Shown here in pieces: positions 10,443-19,312 of a stretch of DNA of 60,303 bases. The translations under genes were made by a program, and so were the position numbers. The DNA is from Candidatus Zambryskiibacteriota bacterium. GTDB taxonomy: Bacteria; Patescibacteriota; Minisyncoccia; Phycocordibacterales; DATDWN01. Below the pieces are notes generated by a model. It was given only the letters and a program-made list of their open reading frames with translations, was not told the DNA's origin and searched no databases. The stretch is from positions 1 to 60,303 of the forward strand of contig PPGI01000010.1 of assembly GCA_003173855.1 (NCBI GenBank), written 5' to 3'. Position 1 is the first letter of the stretch, and every line of letters starts with the position of its first letter.

Positions 10443-11531
10443 ATGAAAAAATTTATTAAAATCTGTTTCTATCTTTTGATCATTCTTTTTGCAGTTACAA
10501 TTTTATCTAAATCATCAATCAAACATAATGTGAATGTAAAGCCATCTCGGGCACTCCATGTTCCAGCTGTTGGAGCGATACGTTGGGATGCGTGGTATTC
10601 AGGAAGTAATTTAAGTAAAACTGAGGAAATCGCTCTGTCGCCAGAGAAATGGCATTATCGTCTGCCTTTTTATGCAGTGATTCCAAAAAAGGGAACTGTT
10701 CAGATTAGATTGGATACACAGGCACAAATGGACTTTGAAATTCGAGCAGCCAAAGCTGGAGGATTAGATTATTGGGCGTTTGGTTATTATGGTGATAATG
10801 ATAAAAATGCTAATGCATTAAAAAAATATTTAAATAGTGCTCATAAAGCTGACATGAGATATGCTCTACTTTTATTTCCACAAGCAATTGGGAAAAGTGG
10901 ATGGCTTGGTCAAGTCGTTGCTCACTTTTCTGATCCACTGTATATGAAGGTTCTAAATGGTCGACCACTTTTATATGTATTTGATGCCGGAGGATCGATT
11001 TCAAAAAATGATTTGGAAAGTGTGAGAAGTGCTGCAAAATCCGCAGGTCTGCCAAACCCATACATTGCTTGGATGACATGGGATGTGCAGGATGGGAAGT
11101 GTGAAAGTCATGACTGCGATGCTATTGCCAATTATGGATTATCACCTACAGGAAATCCCCTGGAAGTTGTGCCGTATCAAAATTTAGCAAATGTGGATCT
11201 TAAATTTTCTCAAGATGCCGAGAATAGAGGCTTAAAAGTTATCCCACCAGTTGGCACTGGTTGGGATCCACGACCTGGGTATGATTATCCGCCGCCATGG
11301 GGAGCAGGTTACAAGACGGCAGTTACAAATGGGACACCTCAGGAGATTGCAGAAAATTTAAATACTGCTATACATTGGGCAAACAGCAATGGATCTGCTG
11401 AATCAAAAGTAATTCTCATATATGCATGGAATGAATTTGAGGAAGGAGGATGGCTAACACCGATGCTACAAGGTGGAGCAGAGAGACTCACTGCGATAAG
11501 CTCTGTTATGAGCACGCTTCCTAAAAAATAA
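10443..11531 (+). CDS. Secreted GH99/GH71-like glycoside hydrolase
   Basis: VGAIRWDAW, LDYWAF, GRPLLYVF, GWDPRP, IYAWNEFEEGGW motifs; N-terminal signal/TM. Confidence 0.7.
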   Translation: MKKFIKICFYLLIILFAVTILSKSSIKHNVNVKPSRALHVPAVGAIRWDAWYSGSNLSKTEEIALSPEKWHYRLPFYAVIPKKGTVQIRLDTQAQMDFEIRAAKAGGLDYWAFGYYGDNDKNANALKKYLNSAHKADMRYALLLFPQAIGKSGWLGQVVAHFSDPLYMKVLNGRPLLYVFDAGGSISKNDLESVRSAAKSAGLPNPYIAWMTWDVQDGKCESHDCDAIANYGLSPTGNPLEVVPYQNLANVDLKFSQDAENRGLKVIPPVGTGWDPRPGYDYPPPWGAGYKTAVTNGTPQEIAENLNTAIHWANSNGSAESKVILIYAWNEFEEGGWLTPMLQGGAERLTAISSVMSTLPKK

Positions 11532-11541
11532 AATTAATATT

Positions 11542-11615
11542 GCGGAATTAGTTAAATGGTAGAACGGCCGCTTCCCAAGCGGCAAATACGAGTTCGATTC
11601 TCGTATTCCGCACCA
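11542..11615 (+). tRNA. tRNA-Gly (CCC)
   Basis: GCGGAAT/ATTCCGC acceptor, GCCGC-TT-CCC-AA-GCGGC anticodon arm, ACGAG-TTCGATT-CTCGT T arm, encoded CCA. Confidence 0.95.
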
Positions 11616-11679
11616 TTGACTTTGTTTAATAACTATGCTAATACGATGGCGTACTTATATTTAAATCAAAGAAATCAAT

Positions 11680-13038
11680 ATGCCGTCTTACTCAAAAATT
11701 GCCTTATTTTCAGCCATTTTATTGGTATTTTTTACTTCGTCAGCTTATGCTCAAGTTGTTTCTTCAACTCCTCCAACAGTTTCAATCGGAGTAGGAAATG
11801 GCAATACTCCAGCAAATACTGGTCCTCAACATGGCTCAATTTTTCATGGAAACATTCCTGTTTATGCAACTGTAAACGATCCAGATAACGATTTAGAAAA
11901 TTATCACTTTCGAGTTGTGAAAGATGGTGGCAGTTTAGGTTTTACTTGCACAGTTCCAGACGGATTATTTTTGCCTGAAAATCAAGGTTATGCATCATCA
12001 ACTCTTGGAAAAGATGCTTGCGGATATGTTTACAATCAGTCAATTTATACTGGAACCAATTTTACAAACTCAATTATTACTACTTTAAACACAATTGATC
12101 TTGGCGCTTATTCTGGTGATGGAAATTATTGGCTAATTCTTGGTGCTCGAGATACTACAGGAAACCGTACAAATCCTGACTATTTGACTGATTCACAAGT
12201 AGAAATCACTGTTGATAATACAGCTCCCATGACAACAAGTTCAATAGGAAACAGGAGAGATTCTGACTTATTTACAATTTTCGGAACGTCAACTGATACA
12301 AATGGTGTGGCAAACACAACTGTTTCATATGCAAATTTTGATGGAACAAATTGCGGAACTTTTTCACAAGCAGGAATTTTAAATGGGGGAAATACGGCAG
12401 TCTTTCCTTGGACATTCGAATTTAATCCAAATACCGACGGAAATTATTGTCTTTCTGTTTCTAGTACTGATCTCGTAGGAAACAAAGAAACTGATAATAC
12501 AATTGAAACTAATATTCCGTTTCTTTCTTCAACAACTCCAACGCCAACACCTACGCCATCACCAAGTCCAAGTCCAGCACCGTCTCCGTCCCCAACTCCA
12601 GCACCAAATTCAGCTCCTGTAGGAGGAAATGGCCCAATTGTTGGCACATTTGGGAAAATTAATGGTCAAGGATCAAATGACGGACAAGTTCTTGGTGAAT
12701 CAACAACAACACTCCCATCGGGCTGTGTACCTGTACTAACTTCTTACCTAATCAGCGGCGGCAAGAATAATAAAGAAGATGTAAAAACACTCCAGAATTT
12801 TTTGAATAAATATTTTGGAACAAATATTCCAGTAAACGGAATTTTTGGTCCGCAAACTCTTGCCGCAGTTTATAAATTCCAGGCAAAAGAAAGTGAAGAA
12901 GTCTTAATGCCTTGGGTCAGAGCTGGATTGTGGAAGAGCGCAAACCCAACTGGTTACGTTTACAAAACTACATCACGACGAATAAATATGCTGAGCTGCA
13001 TTGGTGAAATAAATATCCCAATGCCGCAGCTTCCTTAA
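11680..13038 (+). CDS. Secreted beta-rich (Ig-like) protein with Pro-Thr/Ser linker and C-terminal peptidoglycan-binding-like domain
   Basis: Signal peptide ending AYA, ITVDNTAP Ig-type motif, TPTPTPTPSPSPSP, DVKTLQNFLN..VNGIFGPQTLAAVYKFQ. Confidence 0.75.
   Translation: MPSYSKIALFSAILLVFFTSSAYAQVVSSTPPTVSIGVGNGNTPANTGPQHGSIFHGNIPVYATVNDPDNDLENYHFRVVKDGGSLGFTCTVPDGLFLPENQGYASSTLGKDACGYVYNQSIYTGTNFTNSIITTLNTIDLGAYSGDGNYWLILGARDTTGNRTNPDYLTDSQVEITVDNTAPMTTSSIGNRRDSDLFTIFGTSTDTNGVANTTVSYANFDGTNCGTFSQAGILNGGNTAVFPWTFEFNPNTDGNYCLSVSSTDLVGNKETDNTIETNIPFLSSTTPTPTPTPSPSPSPAPSPSPTPAPNSAPVGGNGPIVGTFGKINGQGSNDGQVLGESTTTLPSGCVPVLTSYLISGGKNNKEDVKTLQNFLNKYFGTNIPVNGIFGPQTLAAVYKFQAKESEEVLMPWVRAGLWKSANPTGYVYKTTSRRINMLSCIGEINIPMPQLP
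12537..12606 (+). repeat. Pro-Thr/Pro-Ser coding repeat
   Basis: cca/ccg + aca/act/agt codon repeats. Confidence 0.85.
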
Positions 13039-13042
13039 TGAG

Positions 13043-13063
13043 AATCGCCTCCGGGCGATTTTT
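13043..13063 (+). terminator. Intrinsic terminator-like hairpin
   Basis: AATCGCC-TCCG-GGCGATT plus T run right after the stop at 13038. Confidence 0.65.
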
Positions 13064-13079
13064 CATTTATAATAAAATT

Positions 13080-14033
13080 ATGGATTTTTTAAAGAAGTGG
13101 TTTGTACCTGGTCAAAAAAATGGCTATAAACCGCATTTATTTTCTGAAACCGGAATAGGTGTTCTTTTTTCTTTGATTATTTTTGTTTTTTTGATAGCTA
13201 GTTTAGGTAATTTTATTATTAGCAGAACTGGTCTAACGGCTTTAGTTTTACCGAATGTTTTAGTTGATGAAGCAAATAGTGATCGACAAGCTCTGCAATA
13301 TAGAGAACTAACAATAAATCCAATACTAGTTCGAGCAGCGCAATTGAAAGCCAATGATATGGCAACTAAAGGTTATTTTGCCCATCAAAGTCCTGATGGA
13401 CATTCGCCATGGTACTGGTTTAGCGAAGCAGGGTATGATTTTAGTTATGCTGGAGAAAACTTGGCAGTAAATTTTACTGATTCAAGTGATGTAAATGCTG
13501 CATGGATGAATTCGCCATCTCACAGAGCAAATATATTAAATAGTAATTTTACTGAAATTGGCATTGCCACTGCAGAAGGAATTTATAACGGAAAAGCCAC
13601 AACATTTGTGGTCGAAATGTTTGGCAGGCCAGCGTTTGAAAATTTGGCTACAAATATAGCTTTAAATGCAGAAACTAAGACAAAAATCGCTACTACAACC
13701 AAAATTGTTCGAACATCGAGTGTTCTTGGTGCTAGTGAGGAAAACGATCTTTATATTGCTGTAAAAAAGGAGAGTGCTGCCACAACTTTTGCCGAAAATA
13801 CAAATTATTCTAATTGGATTGGACGATTGTTCTCTTCTCCAAAAAGAATAATGAGCTTTATTTATATTGTTCTTGCTGTGCTAATTACTATCGGATTAAT
13901 CCTTATGATTGTGATTGAAATAAAAAAACAACATCCAATTTATATTATGTTTGGTCTAGGACTTCTCTTTTTAATGCTTGTTCTTACGTATCTTTATCAA
14001 AATTTATTGTTTGGACCACTTCTCATCGTTTAA
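13080..14033 (+). CDS. CAP/SCP-domain membrane protein
   Basis: AAQLKANDMA..GYFAH.SPDG, YAGENLA, AWMNSPSHRANIL, EIGIA; TM helices at both ends; start moved to MDFLKKW. Confidence 0.9.
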   Translation: MDFLKKWFVPGQKNGYKPHLFSETGIGVLFSLIIFVFLIASLGNFIISRTGLTALVLPNVLVDEANSDRQALQYRELTINPILVRAAQLKANDMATKGYFAHQSPDGHSPWYWFSEAGYDFSYAGENLAVNFTDSSDVNAAWMNSPSHRANILNSNFTEIGIATAEGIYNGKATTFVVEMFGRPAFENLATNIALNAETKTKIATTTKIVRTSSVLGASEENDLYIAVKKESAATTFAENTNYSNWIGRLFSSPKRIMSFIYIVLAVLITIGLILMIVIEIKKQHPIYIMFGLGLLFLMLVLTYLYQNLLFGPLLIV

Positions 14034-14121
14034 GGCAAGGTAAGTTCGTCAAACTTCATCACGTCTTCATTTACAGCCAGGTGGAATTTAACATAACTTT
14101 CTGCTAAGGTAACAAAATACG

Positions 14122-15180
14122 ATGGAAATAAAAAAGATTGTGAAGCCGAAATTCATTATTTTAAGCCTTTTATTTACACTTATTATCCCGTTTTTCCCAT
14201 TTCCTAATATATCAGGGCTGTGGGCTACAGAGGCTAAAACAAAGCAACATGGCAGGTGGGCAACTGACTCTACACCATCTCCAGATCCAAGTCCTAGCCC
14301 AGTGCCAACACCAAGTCCAAGTCCAGCACCAAGCCCAACTCCAACTCCGACGCCTACACCGACACCAGTTACAAGCCCTACGCCAACTCCAGTAGCAGGA
14401 ACAATACAATGGGGAGCTTATGCTGGAGAAACTGTTAGTGAAATACAAAATTTTGAAACTCTTATGGGCAAACAAACAGAAATTGTAAGTGTCTTTTATG
14501 CATTCACTGATGATTTTCCAACAACTTATCAATCAGCAATTGGCGCAAAAGGGAAAACACTTTTAATTTTTTGGGAGCCAACAACCAATCTTGATCAAAT
14601 AAATAATGGAAACCAAGATGCTTATTTACGTGCTTTTGCCGCTGGAGCCAAAGCTTATGGTTATCCAATAATTCTTGCGCCATTCCATGAAGTTAACGGC
14701 AATTGGGATGTTTGGGATGGAACAGTAAGCAATAACTCTCCAGCCAAGTTTCTAACTGCTTGGAAGCACGTTCATGACCTTTTCATTGGTGTAAATAACG
14801 TTAAATTTGCTTTATCTTATAATGCTGGTTCGGTTCCAGATGTTGTCGGAAATCAAATGAGCGATTACTATCCTGGAGATAATTACGTTGATTATCTTGG
14901 ACTTGATGGCTTCAATTTTGGTTCTCCTTGGCAATCATTTGATGCTATTTTTGCCGTTCCAATAATTGAATTAGAAAGTTACCACAAACCAATTTATATT
15001 TTCTCAATGGCTTCAACTGCTGGAGCGGGGAAGGCTGCATGGATTAGTGATTTTGGATCTGAAGTTTATAAATTCCCAATTTCAGGCTGGGTTTGGTTTA
15101 ATCAAAATGGAACTGATGGAAATTGGCTCGTAAACTCTGATTCAGCTTCATTAACTGCATTCAAGCAAATTTTGCCTTAG
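14122..15180 (+). CDS. GH26-like (beta-mannanase/endoglucanase H family) protein with Pro-Thr linker
   Basis: LLIFWEP, FHEVNGNW, YYPGDNYVDYLGLDGFN, KPIYIF, GWVWFN. Confidence 0.8.
   Translation: MEIKKIVKPKFIILSLLFTLIIPFFPFPNISGLWATEAKTKQHGRWATDSTPSPDPSPSPVPTPSPSPAPSPTPTPTPTPTPVTSPTPTPVAGTIQWGAYAGETVSEIQNFETLMGKQTEIVSVFYAFTDDFPTTYQSAIGAKGKTLLIFWEPTTNLDQINNGNQDAYLRAFAAGAKAYGYPIILAPFHEVNGNWDVWDGTVSNNSPAKFLTAWKHVHDLFIGVNNVKFALSYNAGSVPDVVGNQMSDYYPGDNYVDYLGLDGFNFGSPWQSFDAIFAVPIIELESYHKPIYIFSMASTAGAGKAAWISDFGSEVYKFPISGWVWFNQNGTDGNWLVNSDSASLTAFKQILP
14272..14392 (+). repeat. Pro-Thr/Pro-Ser coding repeat
   Basis: TPSPDPSPSPVPTPSPSPAPSPTPTPTPTPTP. Confidence 0.85.
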
Positions 15181-15330
15181 TCAAGTAGACAAATCAAAAA
15201 AAATAACTAGTATCGGTTAAGAATTTTCTTTTACATAAGCCTCGTTGCAAATTAGTTGCAGCAGGCTTGCTTTTTTTAAGAAAATGTGTTTATATTAGCC
15301 GGTCAAATTGGGGCTATAAACATATACAAT

Positions 15331-16341
15331 ATGCGAATTTCAATAGTCATTCCATGTCATAACGAAGAGAAGTCGATTGCTAAATGTATCGATTCTTGTC
15401 TTGCGCAGACCAGAAAAGCTGATCAGATTTTAGTTATTAACGATGGAAGCACAGATAATTCTCGAAAAATTTTGGAAACTTACAAAAAAGATATTGAAGT
15501 TTTAACAATTCCAGTAGCAACAGGTAATAAAAGCCGTGCTCAAGAAAAAGGTCTCTCTTATGTAACAGGTGATATTTTTATTGCAACTGACGGAGATACT
15601 TTGCTTGATAAAAATTTTGTAAAACGAATCGAAGAAGATTTTAAAGATCCAAAAGTCATTGCCGTTGGAGGATATGTTAAAAGTCTTCGCTACAATTGGC
15701 TGACTGCATGCCGCGCTCTCGATTATACAGTTGGACAAAATATCGATAAGCTTGCCCAAGACTATGTAAATTACATGCTTGTTATTCCTGGCGCAGCAGG
15801 AGCATTTCGAACTAACATTTTTAAAAAGCTTGGTTTTGACCACGACACCCTAACAGAAGATTTGGATTTTACTTATAAACTCCATAAACTAGGCCATAAA
15901 ATTAAATATGATAGGGAAGCCATTTGCTATACTCAGGATCCTGCAGATTTTTCATCTTATGTAAATCAAATGCGAAGATGGTTTGGTGGCGGTTGGCAAT
16001 GTTTTATGAAGCATGCCAGTGTTCCATCTCGACCGGGCATGGCACTTGAACTCTCGCTAATTTACGGAGAAGGCTTGGTTTTCTCTCTTTTAATTTTCCT
16101 TCTTCCGTTTATAAATATCTTTTTTGCTCTGACATTGCTATTTTCAAATCTTGTTATTGTTCTTGCACTTGCAATCTTTGCCGGCGCTAAAGAAAAGCGA
16201 TGGGATTTTCTCTTAATTCTTCCACAATACTTATTTTTAAAATATGTAAACGCTTGGATTTATCTTGAACAATTCACAAAAGAAGTTGTTTTAAAAAGAA
16301 AAAATATGGCCTGGTTTCATCCAGACAGAGTAAGAATATAA
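15331..16341 (+). CDS. Processive GT2 polysaccharide synthase (IcaA/PgaC/NodC-like)
   Basis: IVIPCHNEE, INDGSTD, TDGDT (DxD), PGAAGAFR, TEDLD, QMRRW; C-terminal TM helices; start moved to MRISIV. Confidence 0.9.
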   Translation: MRISIVIPCHNEEKSIAKCIDSCLAQTRKADQILVINDGSTDNSRKILETYKKDIEVLTIPVATGNKSRAQEKGLSYVTGDIFIATDGDTLLDKNFVKRIEEDFKDPKVIAVGGYVKSLRYNWLTACRALDYTVGQNIDKLAQDYVNYMLVIPGAAGAFRTNIFKKLGFDHDTLTEDLDFTYKLHKLGHKIKYDREAICYTQDPADFSSYVNQMRRWFGGGWQCFMKHASVPSRPGMALELSLIYGEGLVFSLLIFLLPFINIFFALTLLFSNLVIVLALAIFAGAKEKRWDFLLILPQYLFLKYVNAWIYLEQFTKEVVLKRKNMAWFHPDRVRI

Positions 16342-16345
16342 ATTT

Positions 16346-16447
16346 ATGCCAACAGTACCATTTGTAGGACTATCGATGATCATAAACCTCGTAATCGTAA
16401 CGAGCGTTAAATTAGGCCGTAAAATGTTCGAAATTTTGAGCGAATAA
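16346..16447 (+). CDS. 33-aa single-TM peptide (not in ORF track)
   Basis: MPTVPFVGLSMIINLVIVTSVKLGRKMFEILSE; begins 4 nt after the GT2 stop and ends 1 nt before the next ATG. Confidence 0.65.
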   Translation: MPTVPFVGLSMIINLVIVTSVKLGRKMFEILSE

Positions 16448-16448
16448 T

Positions 16449-16814
16449 ATGAAATTTATCTCAGTCACAATTGTTATAGCAGTCTTTACGATGGTTCTTA
16501 TGGGATCGTATTTAATCCTAATTCAGAGTTTTCGAAGTGATACTTCAAATTACAGAATCGTAAAAGAAATCATTTCAAAACAATTTGATATTGTCAGAGC
16601 CGACAGCTTAAAAGAAAAATTAACTTGCTTAACAACTTCACAAAATTATTCGATTGTCGATTTTATGAAAGCAAATAATATTGATAGTTCTTTTGAAGCC
16701 AGAGCTGTCTTAGCAAAAAAAATTAATATAAATGATTACGATGGTACTCCGGATGAAAATTCTAAGCTAATTAAATATTTAATTAGTCAAAAATGCCAAG
16801 AAACAGTTACATAA
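16449..16814 (+). CDS. Membrane-anchored protein with DUF3597-like cell-wall-binding module
   Basis: N-terminal TM; SIVDFMKANNIDSSFEARAVLAKKININDYDGTPDENSKL resembles the SIVD..DSSF..R..LA module of Firmicute endolysins. Confidence 0.6.
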   Translation: MKFISVTIVIAVFTMVLMGSYLILIQSFRSDTSNYRIVKEIISKQFDIVRADSLKEKLTCLTTSQNYSIVDFMKANNIDSSFEARAVLAKKININDYDGTPDENSKLIKYLISQKCQETVT

Positions 16815-16888
16815 TGTTTTTTGCTTGCATTATATAAAGGGTTATGGCAAGGTTTAAAAAATTTAATACAGAATTAATAGAAAAGAAT

Positions 16889-19312
16889 ATGAAAACGAAA
16901 ATTACAAAAAAAATGATGAAAAGAAAGGATTTGATAGATGTCCACTTTTTAATAAGCTCGGCATTGTTTAGTGTTTTAGTTGTATTTTCCACTGTTGTCT
17001 TACAGCCTCTTTCACTTAAAGCCGAAGATGTAAATTTAATTCCTAACGCAGATTTTCTAAATCAAACGATCCCTGGTATTCCAGATAATTGGTTTCAAGG
17101 CGGTTACGGAGTAAGCACTTCAACATTTGCATTTCCGGTTATAGGTTCAACAGGAGCTCCCACTGATAACGCAGTAAACGTTACAATCACAAATTATCAA
17201 AGTGGTGACGCGAAGTGGTACTTTTCTCCAGTTCCCGTAACAGCAGGACGAACTTACGTTTTTTCAGATTCATATAAATCAGATACGCAATCACAAATAA
17301 TTGCAGAGTATTTTGATACAAACTTAGTTCCACTATCACCAACAGATCCGGGAACAAGAGGGTGGTTTGGAGTAGTCCCAGCATCAACCGAATGGGCAAC
17401 AACGACAAACAGCTTTACACCTCCAGCCGGTGCAGCTTACATGACTGTTTTCCATTCTCTACAAGGCAATGGCTCGCTTACAACAGATGACTCTAAGCTT
17501 ATATTGCTTCCGCCTCCACCGCAGTTTGCTAATGGGGTAGTGACACTTACATTCGATGATGGTTGGGAATCACAATATATAAATGCTTTTCCAGCACTAA
17601 AAAACGCGGGATACAAAGGATCATTCTATTTAATTTCAAGCACACTAATTCCTGGTGCAGAAGTTGATCCAAATATTCTTTGCCAAAACGTTCAATCTTA
17701 TTGTGATCAAGGCGTAATTTCTGAAACCCCAAGCTCTTGGATGGCAGCCGGACAATATCCAGATCCAAACACTGACACTTACACATTTGCTGACACATTT
17801 GATGCAAGTGCAACAAGCACAATTACAGTTAGTTACTTTGATCAAAATAATAATCCAATAGATGGCGAGCAAAATATTGTCCTTCAAACTCTTGAGTCGG
17901 GAACAGGACAAAATGTTTCAGTGAAATTTACAATTCCTCCAGCAGTTTTTGCCCTAACCAGTACATCATCTCCAGTAGGCCCATCATTTGCTATTGTTCA
18001 TTTCGTTCCAGATGGAGAGACTATTCATGTAACAAGTCCAAAGGTAACAAAAAAACAAAGCGGAGCTGACACCTACATGGTTCCGTCGCAAATTCTTGAT
18101 ATGCAGGCAAATGGCATGGAAATCGGGGCTCACACAGTAGATCACTGCAACCTTGCACTTCTTGATCAAGATAACAGCTCATCTTTAACAGGAGCATGTG
18201 CTTCAAATCTTTTAGTTCCAGTAACACCTGAATACGAAATCAATACTTCTCGATCAACAATACAGTCGTTTGGAGCAACACCTGTTGATACATTTGTTTA
18301 TCCATACGGAGGATTTAATGCTCATGTTGAGTCATTAATAAACCAAGCAGGATTTATTTCTTCGCGAACAGTAAATGTCGGATTCAATACAAAAAATTCT
18401 GATTTGTACGCTCTTAACACACAGTTAGTTGATAAGCCGCTTACTGATAATCCAACTGGTTTAAATACAGTTGAGTCTTGGATTGATACAGCCCTAAACA
18501 ATAAATCATGGCTCATTCTTACATTCCACAATGTTCAAACTCCAGAACAAATGGCTGCTAATCAATCAGCTCGACCAGGAAGTGTTGATGAATCAACGAC
18601 CTCGGTATTCTTTCAAGCGGTTGTTGATTATTTAAAGGCACATAATGTTTGTGTAGCAACAATGCATGATGCAACCAATGCTCTTAAATCTGATCAAGAT
18701 CCATGTAATTCCCAAACAAATACACCGCCTCCAACACCGACACCTACACCTACACCTACTCCAACTCCTACGCCCACTCCAACTCCAACACCAACTCCTG
18801 ATCCAACTCCAACACCAACACCAGCACCATCAGGAGGTGGCGGAGGAGGTGGAGGTGGTGGTCCAACAATATATGAAATTATTGCAAGATCAGCTTCGTC
18901 GACATCTTCATCATCAACTGGCCAAGTTTTGGGAGAAAGCACAAGTTCTCCATTAACAGGCATGGATCTTCTAAATGCACTTAAAGTAAAACTTGCTTCT
19001 CTATATAAGCAGCTAGTTACACTTCAATTCAAAGCTTCTGGTTGTTCATATGTCTGGACTACAGATCTATCATTTGGCTCGTATTCATCTGATGTAAATA
19101 GTCTTCAAACAACATTAAACTCAAGTTCTCTGACTGAAGTTGGGAACAAAGGATTTGAAACATCATTCTTTGGACTTTCAACAAAAGCGGCAGTTATTAA
19201 ATTCCAAAATATTTTCCTTGAGGAAACTATGAAACCATTGGGATTAACTTCTGGAAATGGAATTGTTGGATCTACAACACGCGCAGTCTTGAATACCATT
19301 TGTTCCAAATAG
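16889..19312 (+). CDS. Secreted CE4/NodB polysaccharide deacetylase with CBM-like domains, Pro-Thr linker and peptidoglycan-binding-like C-terminus
   Basis: LTFDDG, EIGAHTVDH, FVYPYG, LILTFH CE4 motifs; NLIPNADF..W CBM4/9-like N-terminus; FFGLSTKAAVIKFQ..GNGIVGSTTR. Confidence 0.85.
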   Translation: MKTKITKKMMKRKDLIDVHFLISSALFSVLVVFSTVVLQPLSLKAEDVNLIPNADFLNQTIPGIPDNWFQGGYGVSTSTFAFPVIGSTGAPTDNAVNVTITNYQSGDAKWYFSPVPVTAGRTYVFSDSYKSDTQSQIIAEYFDTNLVPLSPTDPGTRGWFGVVPASTEWATTTNSFTPPAGAAYMTVFHSLQGNGSLTTDDSKLILLPPPPQFANGVVTLTFDDGWESQYINAFPALKNAGYKGSFYLISSTLIPGAEVDPNILCQNVQSYCDQGVISETPSSWMAAGQYPDPNTDTYTFADTFDASATSTITVSYFDQNNNPIDGEQNIVLQTLESGTGQNVSVKFTIPPAVFALTSTSSPVGPSFAIVHFVPDGETIHVTSPKVTKKQSGADTYMVPSQILDMQANGMEIGAHTVDHCNLALLDQDNSSSLTGACASNLLVPVTPEYEINTSRSTIQSFGATPVDTFVYPYGGFNAHVESLINQAGFISSRTVNVGFNTKNSDLYALNTQLVDKPLTDNPTGLNTVESWIDTALNNKSWLILTFHNVQTPEQMAANQSARPGSVDESTTSVFFQAVVDYLKAHNVCVATMHDATNALKSDQDPCNSQTNTPPPTPTPTPTPTPTPTPTPTPTPTPDPTPTPTPAPSGGGGGGGGGGPTIYEIIARSASSTSSSSTGQVLGESTSSPLTGMDLLNALKVKLASLYKQLVTLQFKASGCSYVWTTDLSFGSYSSDVNSLQTTLNSSSLTEVGNKGFETSFFGLSTKAAVIKFQNIFLEETMKPLGLTSGNGIVGSTTRAVLNTICSK
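18721..18857 (+). repeat. Pro-Thr repeat followed by poly-Gly
   Basis: (PT)n then SGGGGGGGGGG. Confidence 0.9.

Follow-up and report, generated by a model that had tools for sequence, protein, structure and literature searches.

We found that three exported proteins, encoded on the plus strand of the stretch of DNA studied here (the window: all 60,303 nucleotides of C7:1–60303, from the genome of an ultra-small bacterium of the Patescibacteria, 651 kb in 16 contigs with an estimated completeness of 97%), carry copies of one short motif of eight residues at the point where a low-complexity stalk gives way to the part of the protein that holds it in the cell envelope. We refer to this motif, which is built around V-L-G, as the VLG box, and to the three proteins as P1, the CAP protein and the deacetylase. 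The box is a real element that is under selection at the protein level, is disordered, sits at the stalk–anchor junction irrespective of the type of anchor, shows enrichment among exported proteins and is independent of sortase. Taking these properties together, we tentatively interpret the three copies as instances of one short linear motif of the whole phylum, which marks this junction and is read in trans. The features on which the argument rests are as follows.

11680–13038, plus strand: P1, an exported Ig-like (Big_13-like) surface protein of 452 amino acids (aa) with the first box (translation, Pfam)
12526–12681, plus strand: low-complexity stalk of P1, TPTPSPSP... then GGNGPIVGTFGKINGQGSND (translation)
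12682–12705, plus strand: VLG box of P1, GQVLGEST, aa 335–342
12724–13035, plus strand: Cys-clamped PG_binding_1 anchor of P1, from Cys349 to the C-terminal ...PMPQLP (PF01471, AlphaFold2 (AF2), Foldseek)
13038–14033, plus strand: open reading frame (ORF) of the CAP-domain protein, which has three membrane helices (one N-terminal, two C-terminal)
13040–13063, plus strand: terminator-like hairpin that separates the genes of P1 and CAP
13080–14033, plus strand: CAP protein, in the order transmembrane (TM) helix, CAP domain, two TM helices (TM-CAP-2TM), from its likely true start (the start in the ORF list is 13038; Pfam CAP 1.6e-16, AF2, start of the profile match)
13722–13736, plus strand: core of the VLG box of the CAP protein, VLGAS, aa 229–233 of the 13038 ORF
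16844–19312, plus strand: exported polysaccharide deacetylase with the third box (Pfam Polysacc_deac_1, 2.5e-17)
18707–18919, plus strand: low-complexity stalk of the deacetylase, (PT)n, G10 and S/T-rich (translation)
18920–18943, plus strand: VLG box of the deacetylase, GQVLGEST, aa 693–700, then SSPLTG
18947–19309, plus strand: helix and PG_binding_1-like anchor of the deacetylase (phmmer)

An earlier note on this DNA had drawn attention to the three motifs, and all of them were found in the ORF translations where it had placed them: GQVLGESTT in P1 (aa 335–343, nt 12682–12708), SSVLGASEE in the CAP protein (aa 227–235 of the 13038–14033 ORF, nt 13716–13742) and GQVLGESTS in the deacetylase (aa 693–701, nt 18920–18946). 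As it had also claimed, each motif follows a low-complexity stretch (TPTPSPSP...GGNGP in P1; TKIATTTKIVRTSS in the CAP protein; PTPTP...GGGGGGGG...SSTSSSST in the deacetylase), and each is followed by an anchor, which is a PG_binding_1-type domain in P1 and the deacetylase and a pair of C-terminal membrane helices in the CAP protein. Its description of the proteins as otherwise unrelated did not hold, since P1 and the deacetylase have a distantly related anchor domain in common (phmmer E = 0.0012). A fourth copy, VLGTTT (...GGGSGVPSTPTVLGTTTESSSSC), lies in a DUF11-type surface protein encoded on another contig (C5:13507–15255). This protein of 582 aa has an N-terminal region rich in Asp, His, Asn and Lys, then the VLGTTT box and a Cys-clamped PG_binding_1 module, after which come a G-rich segment, a TM helix and a basic tail with no recognizable LPXTG; a protein of the same architecture is encoded in another genome, G026.

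Occurrence of the box in this genome and across the phylum

Because the motif is short and adjoins biased sequence, it could in principle be a product of chance, a compositional by-product of low complexity or the result of a recent DNA duplication within the genome. The counts refute this reading, to which we give virtually no credence. Across all ORFs of the genome (651 kb) VLG[EA]S is found at only four places, three of which fall within the 6 kb treated here, and the broader pattern VLG[AET][ST] occurs seven times, compared with 1.84 ± 1.3 times in residue-shuffled proteins of the same genome; in four of the seven cases the protein is exported and the motif comes directly behind a low-complexity linker. 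The two GQVLGEST copies mismatch at 6 of 23 nucleotide positions, so their identity has been kept at the protein level and does not stem from recent duplication. We also scanned the DNA of 401 Patescibacteria genomes with a degenerate pattern back-translated from G-[Q/E]-V-L-G-x-[S/T]-T and obtained 37 matches in 33 genomes (27 of 320 genera), vs. 4 matches for the reversed pattern used as control (binomial P ~1e-7). Synonymous codons vary among the matches, and in a 47-row alignment of the P1 module (A1) V, L and G are invariant between variable flanks.

We read the ORFs around 30 of the 37 matches. About 15 of the ~27 true boxes lie 0–10 residues before an LPXTG-like motif (LPRTG, LPATG, LPSTG, LPVTG, MANTG, MAGTG or LPAAG) that is followed by a TM helix and a basic tail; three stand before a membrane anchor that lacks a motif of this kind, another two belong to the peptidoglycan-binding proteins of the window and five are in other exported or membrane proteins. 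The remaining matches comprise two of unassigned context, one cytoplasmic enzyme and three V-F-G chance matches. These contexts amount to a strong enrichment in exported proteins, and they show that the box marks the stalk–anchor junction whatever the anchor. The comparison of exported with other proteins that had been suggested as a check therefore comes out positive, both in the window’s own genome and in the 401-genome scan. Of the lineage-specific signal that had been inferred from the three copies, the signal-like character stands (the box is real, selected, typical of the lineage and no by-product of low complexity), and the confinement to one lineage does not, as the box occurs phylum-wide. 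Several boxes can also occur in one protein: in family f21 (loci L126–L128 of genomes G003, G341 and G059), surface proteins of 1320–1356 aa with SpaA/DUF11 domains carry four to five boxes, one of which stands with LPAAG and a TM helix in mid-protein and three more before the final TM helix and basic tail.

The box belongs among the anchor-proximal signals of surface proteins. We did not find the motif in the literature searched, literal motif strings included, and no Pfam or NCBIfam model covers it in scans of the window proteins and of the box-bearing C-termini. What the window adds is a set of sortase-independent cases, structural evidence for disorder, a quantified consensus and spacing, and a conserved gene pair of P1 and CAP. 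A large part of bacterial diversity consists of Patescibacteria, whose way of life is to be attached to other cells, and to our knowledge almost nothing is known of how they build and turn over their surface. The placement of the box at the junction of surface enzymes and adhesins alike, with any anchor, points to a shared handling step (release, modification or tethering), and the box offers a simple, searchable marker of the surface proteome as well as a precise target for peptide-level proteomics and mutagenesis.

Consensus, spacing and the anchors behind the box

We used the C-terminal 122 residues of P1 to search 1.84 billion cluster representatives and obtained 4673 matches at E ≤ 1e-3; most of the alignments begin at or before the motif. 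Among the best 150 of these 4673 proteins (~150 clusters at 50% identity) we counted 162 Cys-clamped PG_binding_1 modules, 138 of which have V-L-G within 60 residues upstream. The 24 modules without it are mostly N-terminal ones behind a signal peptide, or second or third tandem copies; a few have near-variants (ILG, LLG, VAG, VQG or VLS) or no box whatever. The consensus drawn from the 162 boxes is G(94%, position −2)-[Q/E]-V-L-G-[A>T>E]-[S>T]-T, with S or T at +4 in 130 and T at +5 in 128. Box and first Cys of the domain are 2–26 residues apart (median 8), and 24 modules (15%) have two boxes. In the CAP protein family the box is looser: among 120 homologues (42–59% identity) about half keep VLG at the box column, the others have VLA, VLS or IVG, and the flanks vary freely.

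It had been conceded from the outset that the motif might simply be the first strand of the domain that follows, and a first strand or cap would account for its being always near a downstream module, as well as for the short strand that follows the box in the model of the CAP protein (aa 239–241). However, AF2 run on alignment A1 gave a predicted local distance difference test (pLDDT) score above 90 from the Cys onward and below 50, without secondary structure, over the box segment, and in the model of the CAP protein (93-row alignment, predicted template modeling score 0.81) residues 220–235 likewise scored below 50. The latter segment lies between the CAP domain, which ends near residue 199, and the short strand and two C-terminal helices. 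This disorder in two different proteins, both with deep alignments, together with the 2–26 residue spacing, the duplicated copies and the absence of the box from modules behind signal peptides and from second copies, argues that the box is not part of the downstream fold; in addition, the same box stands before four unrelated kinds of anchor. We therefore consider a structural role in the next domain highly improbable. With its conserved core, variable disordered flanks, variable spacing and occasional tandem copies, the box has the properties by which short linear motifs are defined.

The anchor of P1 is a true PG_binding_1 domain (PF01471, 31.9 bits vs. a cut-off of 23), and its AF2 model has the three-helix fold of that family, with Foldseek matches to CtpB, SleC, SleB and the C. 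difficile structure 5tv7. The domain behind the box thus has the fold of known non-covalent anchors (those of CtpB, SleB, SleC, 5tv7 and phage endolysins), and the Patescibacteria subtype has in addition a Cys clamp, an extension (PW...TGYVYKTT) and a tail at the C-terminus (PxPQLP). We know of no VLG-type box before the domain in the solved PG_binding_1 relatives, whose sequences we have not inspected. The Cys-clamped module was present in 8 of 24 sampled genomes of the window’s own class and in 1 of 377 elsewhere; since it is nearly confined to that class, the box is more widespread than this anchor. Named relatives that carry the module include Giovannoni-, Zambryskii-, Kaiser-, Adler-, Nomura-, Taylor-, Lloyd-, Sung- and Nealsonbacteria.

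Two further short elements accompany the module. A second junction box, GGNGP(I/V)xGxFG or SGPLSIGFVNTN, lies 10–25 residues upstream of the VLG box (aa 315–327 of P1, 12622–12660); a GNGP(I/V)xG-like box is present in 41 of 131 homologous modules, about a third, and basic RR or HRR pairs occur in others. At its extreme C-terminus the module ends in ...(I/L)P(M/V)PQLP (13015–13035 in P1), an LP ending being shared by 103 of the 131 modules, and this tail looks like a second short motif.

The anchor of the deacetylase combines a helix with a PG_binding_1-like domain. It falls short of PF01471 (16.7 bits, under the cut-off) and is homologous to the N-terminal helix and PG_binding_1 module of a protein encoded elsewhere in the genome (C13:55867–59382; phmmer E = 1.7e-11). 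With the C-terminus of the deacetylase as query, low-complexity words dominated the search; of the eight matches returned, those that had the helix and PG_binding_1 module lacked the box, which is thus no fixed part of that subtype. Directly 3' of the deacetylase box stands SPLTG (18944–18958, aa 701–705), a pentapeptide close to LPXTG, and then come the helix and the peptidoglycan-binding domain, with no membrane anchor. Three exported proteins of the same genome (C13:55867–59382, C4:55012–55941 and C4:37069–38124) have a PG_binding_1 module directly after the signal peptide and lack the VLG box. The module is preceded by a coiled-coil-like helix in two of them, C13 and C4:55012, and in C4:37069 there is only a short A/T/P-rich stretch; we see in the C13 protein (1171 aa) a candidate for an S-layer or major surface protein.

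The box and sortase

The architecture of the box proteins recalls that of LPXTG sorting signals (TIGR01167/PF00746, classes A–F), in that a short, conserved, C-proximal motif follows a low-complexity stalk that spans the wall. The box differs in not being a pentapeptide and in being followed, in the window, by a folded peptidoglycan-binding domain or by a spacer of 35 residues and membrane helices, and it is matched by no curated LPXTG model. All four box proteins of this genome lack a sortase-type ending. No LPXTG pentapeptide stands directly behind the stalk (P1 has LPSGC there, the deacetylase only SPLTG and the CAP protein nothing of the kind), and a hydrophobic segment with a basic tail directly after a pentapeptide is absent from P1 and the deacetylase, which end in peptidoglycan-binding domains, and from the CAP protein, whose membrane helices begin ~35 aa past the box. 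We also found no NCBIfam match to C-terminal sorting domains of the exosortase, archaeosortase or rhombosortase type (PEP-CTERM, PGF-CTERM, GlyGly-CTERM and the like) in the window proteins or in the box-bearing C-termini, and the architecture of these domains differs as well.

The genome encodes a single sortase (C7:121263–121853, 196 aa), which adjoins a substrate gene without a box. The substrate, of 85 aa, has a signal peptide, a TP-rich stalk, PGVPTTG, a TM helix and KSK, with no box before the pentapeptide, and a regular-expression scan of the genome found one true sortase signal, this VPTTG. The two genes form a minimal operon on the minus strand (C7:121263–122112), in which the substrate gene lies directly upstream of the sortase gene and encodes hardly any passenger. 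Conversely, two relatives with nearly complete or complete genomes carry boxes and gave no sortase match at E ≤ 0.1: G324 (99% complete; boxes PQVLGVSTTTGRVLGESTC and GQVLGTST) and G026 (100% complete; box TGEVLGEAISREESVC). Two other relatives without sortase, G178 and G211, were considered as further cases and dropped, as their PG_binding_1 modules lack the box. In this genome and its relatives the box is therefore independent of sortase, and these cases narrow the range of possible mechanisms.

The junctions of the two anchor types are nonetheless alike. The sequence ...VLGAST-D-LPAGC before PG_binding_1 domains closely parallels ...VLGATT-T-LPATG before sortase anchors, and LPx(G/S)C occupies the place of LPxTG in 37 of 131 PG_binding_1 modules; with the SPLTG of the deacetylase, this suggests that the two kinds of junction may be of common ancestry, which does not imply that sortase acts here. 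One could accordingly imagine the box as an exosite handle on which sortase docks its substrates, and also partners that it leaves uncleaved, with the copies before peptidoglycan-binding domains being inherited relics. The ~15 boxes that directly precede LPXTG-like endings would be explained by such a handle, as would the LPx(G/S)C and SPLTG remnants. However, the box-less substrate of the genome’s only sortase and the box-bearing genomes without sortase disfavor docking as a general function, and where a protein cannot be a sortase substrate, no other element of its junction is as conserved as the box, a pattern unlike that of a decaying relic. We regard the handle, as an exosite role in the sortase-bearing classes, as rather improbable. 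VLGxRR-like repeats before sortase signals occur in some Clostridia and are not used as evidence here.

Possible readers of the box and the gene row

We consider it probable that the box is read in trans. The reader would be an extracytoplasmic factor of the envelope, meeting the box in the disordered membrane- or wall-proximal end of the stalk, 2–26 residues before whatever holds the protein in the envelope: the Cys-clamped PG_binding_1 domain in P1, the helix and PG_binding_1 domain in the deacetylase, the C-terminal pair of membrane helices in the CAP protein and, in other classes, either a sortase signal of LPXTG type or simply a membrane anchor. The reading could be any of sorting, cleavage and glycosylation, which had all been suggested for the motif and which the results do not separate. 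The mechanism that we favor, which we hold to be possible and would not put higher, is endoproteolysis within or just after V-L-G, by which passenger and stalk would be parted from the anchor, in shedding or in maturation.

Cleavage is favored on three grounds drawn from the sequences. First, G-x-V-L-G/A fits the pattern of signal-peptidase-type sites: in the c-region recognized by type I signal peptidase, which follows the −3/−1 rule, one expects a helix breaker, a small or aliphatic residue at −3 and a small one at −1, and the box would offer G at −5 (P5), V or I at −3 (P3), L at −2 and G, with A or S in variants, at −1 (P1), followed by A at +1. Second, homologues of the CAP protein vary at the G position only to A or S. 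Third, where either anchor module is N-terminal, the place of the box is taken by a signal-peptide site (e.g. ...AEAQSDLPESC vs. ...VLGASTDLPASC).

Several observations weigh against cleavage. V-L-G is nearly fixed, whereas signal-peptide sites are variable and type I signal peptidase would predict A-x-A-like variants, and no hydrophobic h-region adjoins the box. None of the box-bearing genes is linked to a protease gene, and an extra signal-peptidase paralogue, which we considered as the box enzyme, is not available, as the genome has only one S26 peptidase gene. Proteins that consist of a membrane helix, the box and a PG_binding_1 module alone (e.g. P0158) lack a passenger that could be shed. 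In several classes the box is tightly coupled to LPXTG, which fits a sortase-related role there, and the conserved [S/T]-T behind the box agrees with a modification site no less well than with a cleavage site.

The last point leads to the alternative that the box is a sequon, directing O-glycosylation or another covalent modification to the Ser/Thr that follows or to the S/T-rich stalk, with an enzyme such as a PMT-family GT-C glycosyltransferase. The hydroxyl residues at +4 and +5 of most of the 162 boxes could then be acceptors, tandem copies are typical of sequons, the box lies inside disordered S/T/G/P-rich stalks, and the genome has three PMT_2 (GT-C) genes within 7 kb (C15:24179–30589). 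A comparable case is the O-glycosylation sequon of Bacteroidota, D-(S/T)-(A/I/L/V/M/T), which is likewise a short Ser/Thr motif in disordered linkers of exported proteins and is sometimes repeated; it differs from the box in sequence, and the box is found only at the stalk–anchor junction rather than scattered, with no link to a glycosyltransferase. Against a sequon, the hydroxyl positions are not invariant (A, C, I, V and Q occur), and one or two sites at the far end of a long stalk would be an odd arrangement for stalk glycosylation. We examined PMT_2 as a linked enzyme and rejected it: its gene lies next to the CAP gene in family f21 only, between that gene and the gene of the multi-box giant surface protein, is absent from 80 related loci (L040–L119) and in the window’s own genome is on another contig, unlinked to the box genes. 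Modification is, in our judgment, unlikely.

A further, non-enzymatic alternative is that the box is a ligand which binds a partner in the wall or membrane (the TM-CAP-2TM protein or peptidoglycan itself) and so fixes the base of the stalk. The CAP protein is a clear member of the CAP/SCP/YkwD family (PF00188, 61.6 bits vs. a cut-off of 21.1), with H116, E140, H162 and E173, a putative CAP tetrad, invariant in 93 CAP sequences and with helices at 37–64, 268–293 and 300–324 in the AF2 model; its gene most likely starts at 13080, past the hairpin. All 33 box-positive genomes encode a member of the TM-CAP-2TM family, compared with 287 of the 401 genomes of the phylum overall (naive hypergeometric P ~1e-5, not corrected for phylogeny), and in 56 of the 80 related loci a CAP homologue is encoded directly downstream of a P1-type gene on the same strand, the two genes being mostly closely spaced or overlapping. 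The CAP protein’s own box could serve as a pseudo-ligand, there are proteins made up of a TM helix, the box and a PG_binding_1 module alone, and DalA, a bacterial CAP lipoprotein, binds peptidoglycan and acts at the divisome (PMC10470522).

Against a ligand stand the neglect of phylogeny in the co-occurrence statistic and the AF2 model, which left the box of the CAP protein undocked on its own CAP domain. A general synteny of the CAP gene with box genes also fails, since gene positions show the two apart outside P1-type genes and family f21; in the latter the gene of the multi-box surface protein lies ~3 kb upstream of the CAP gene. We rate the ligand, like the sortase handle, as rather improbable, and as distinctly improbable the more specific proposal that the near-universal TM-CAP-2TM protein has the box as its ligand or substrate; its CAP domain would recognize the box at the stalk base and would either tether the box-bearing proteins to the membrane or process them, its own box acting as a pseudo-substrate. 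The link between CAP and the box is a lead, not a finding. If CAP does read the box, this would be an undescribed system for handling envelope proteins, serving sortase-anchored, peptidoglycan-binding and membrane-anchored proteins alike.

In the window, the box genes lie in a run of genes for exported envelope proteins on the plus strand between 10.4 and 19.3 kb (ORF translations, Pfam). The other members of the run are as follows.

10443–11531, plus strand: WbsX-like protein (ORF, Pfam)
14122–15180, plus strand: GH26-like protein
15286–16341, plus strand: GT2 protein with C-terminal membrane helices
16449–16814, plus strand: DUF3597 protein

These exported or membrane proteins that handle polysaccharide, together with the deacetylase, flank the box proteins, and the cluster as a whole (10443–19312) is probably an envelope-glycan locus.

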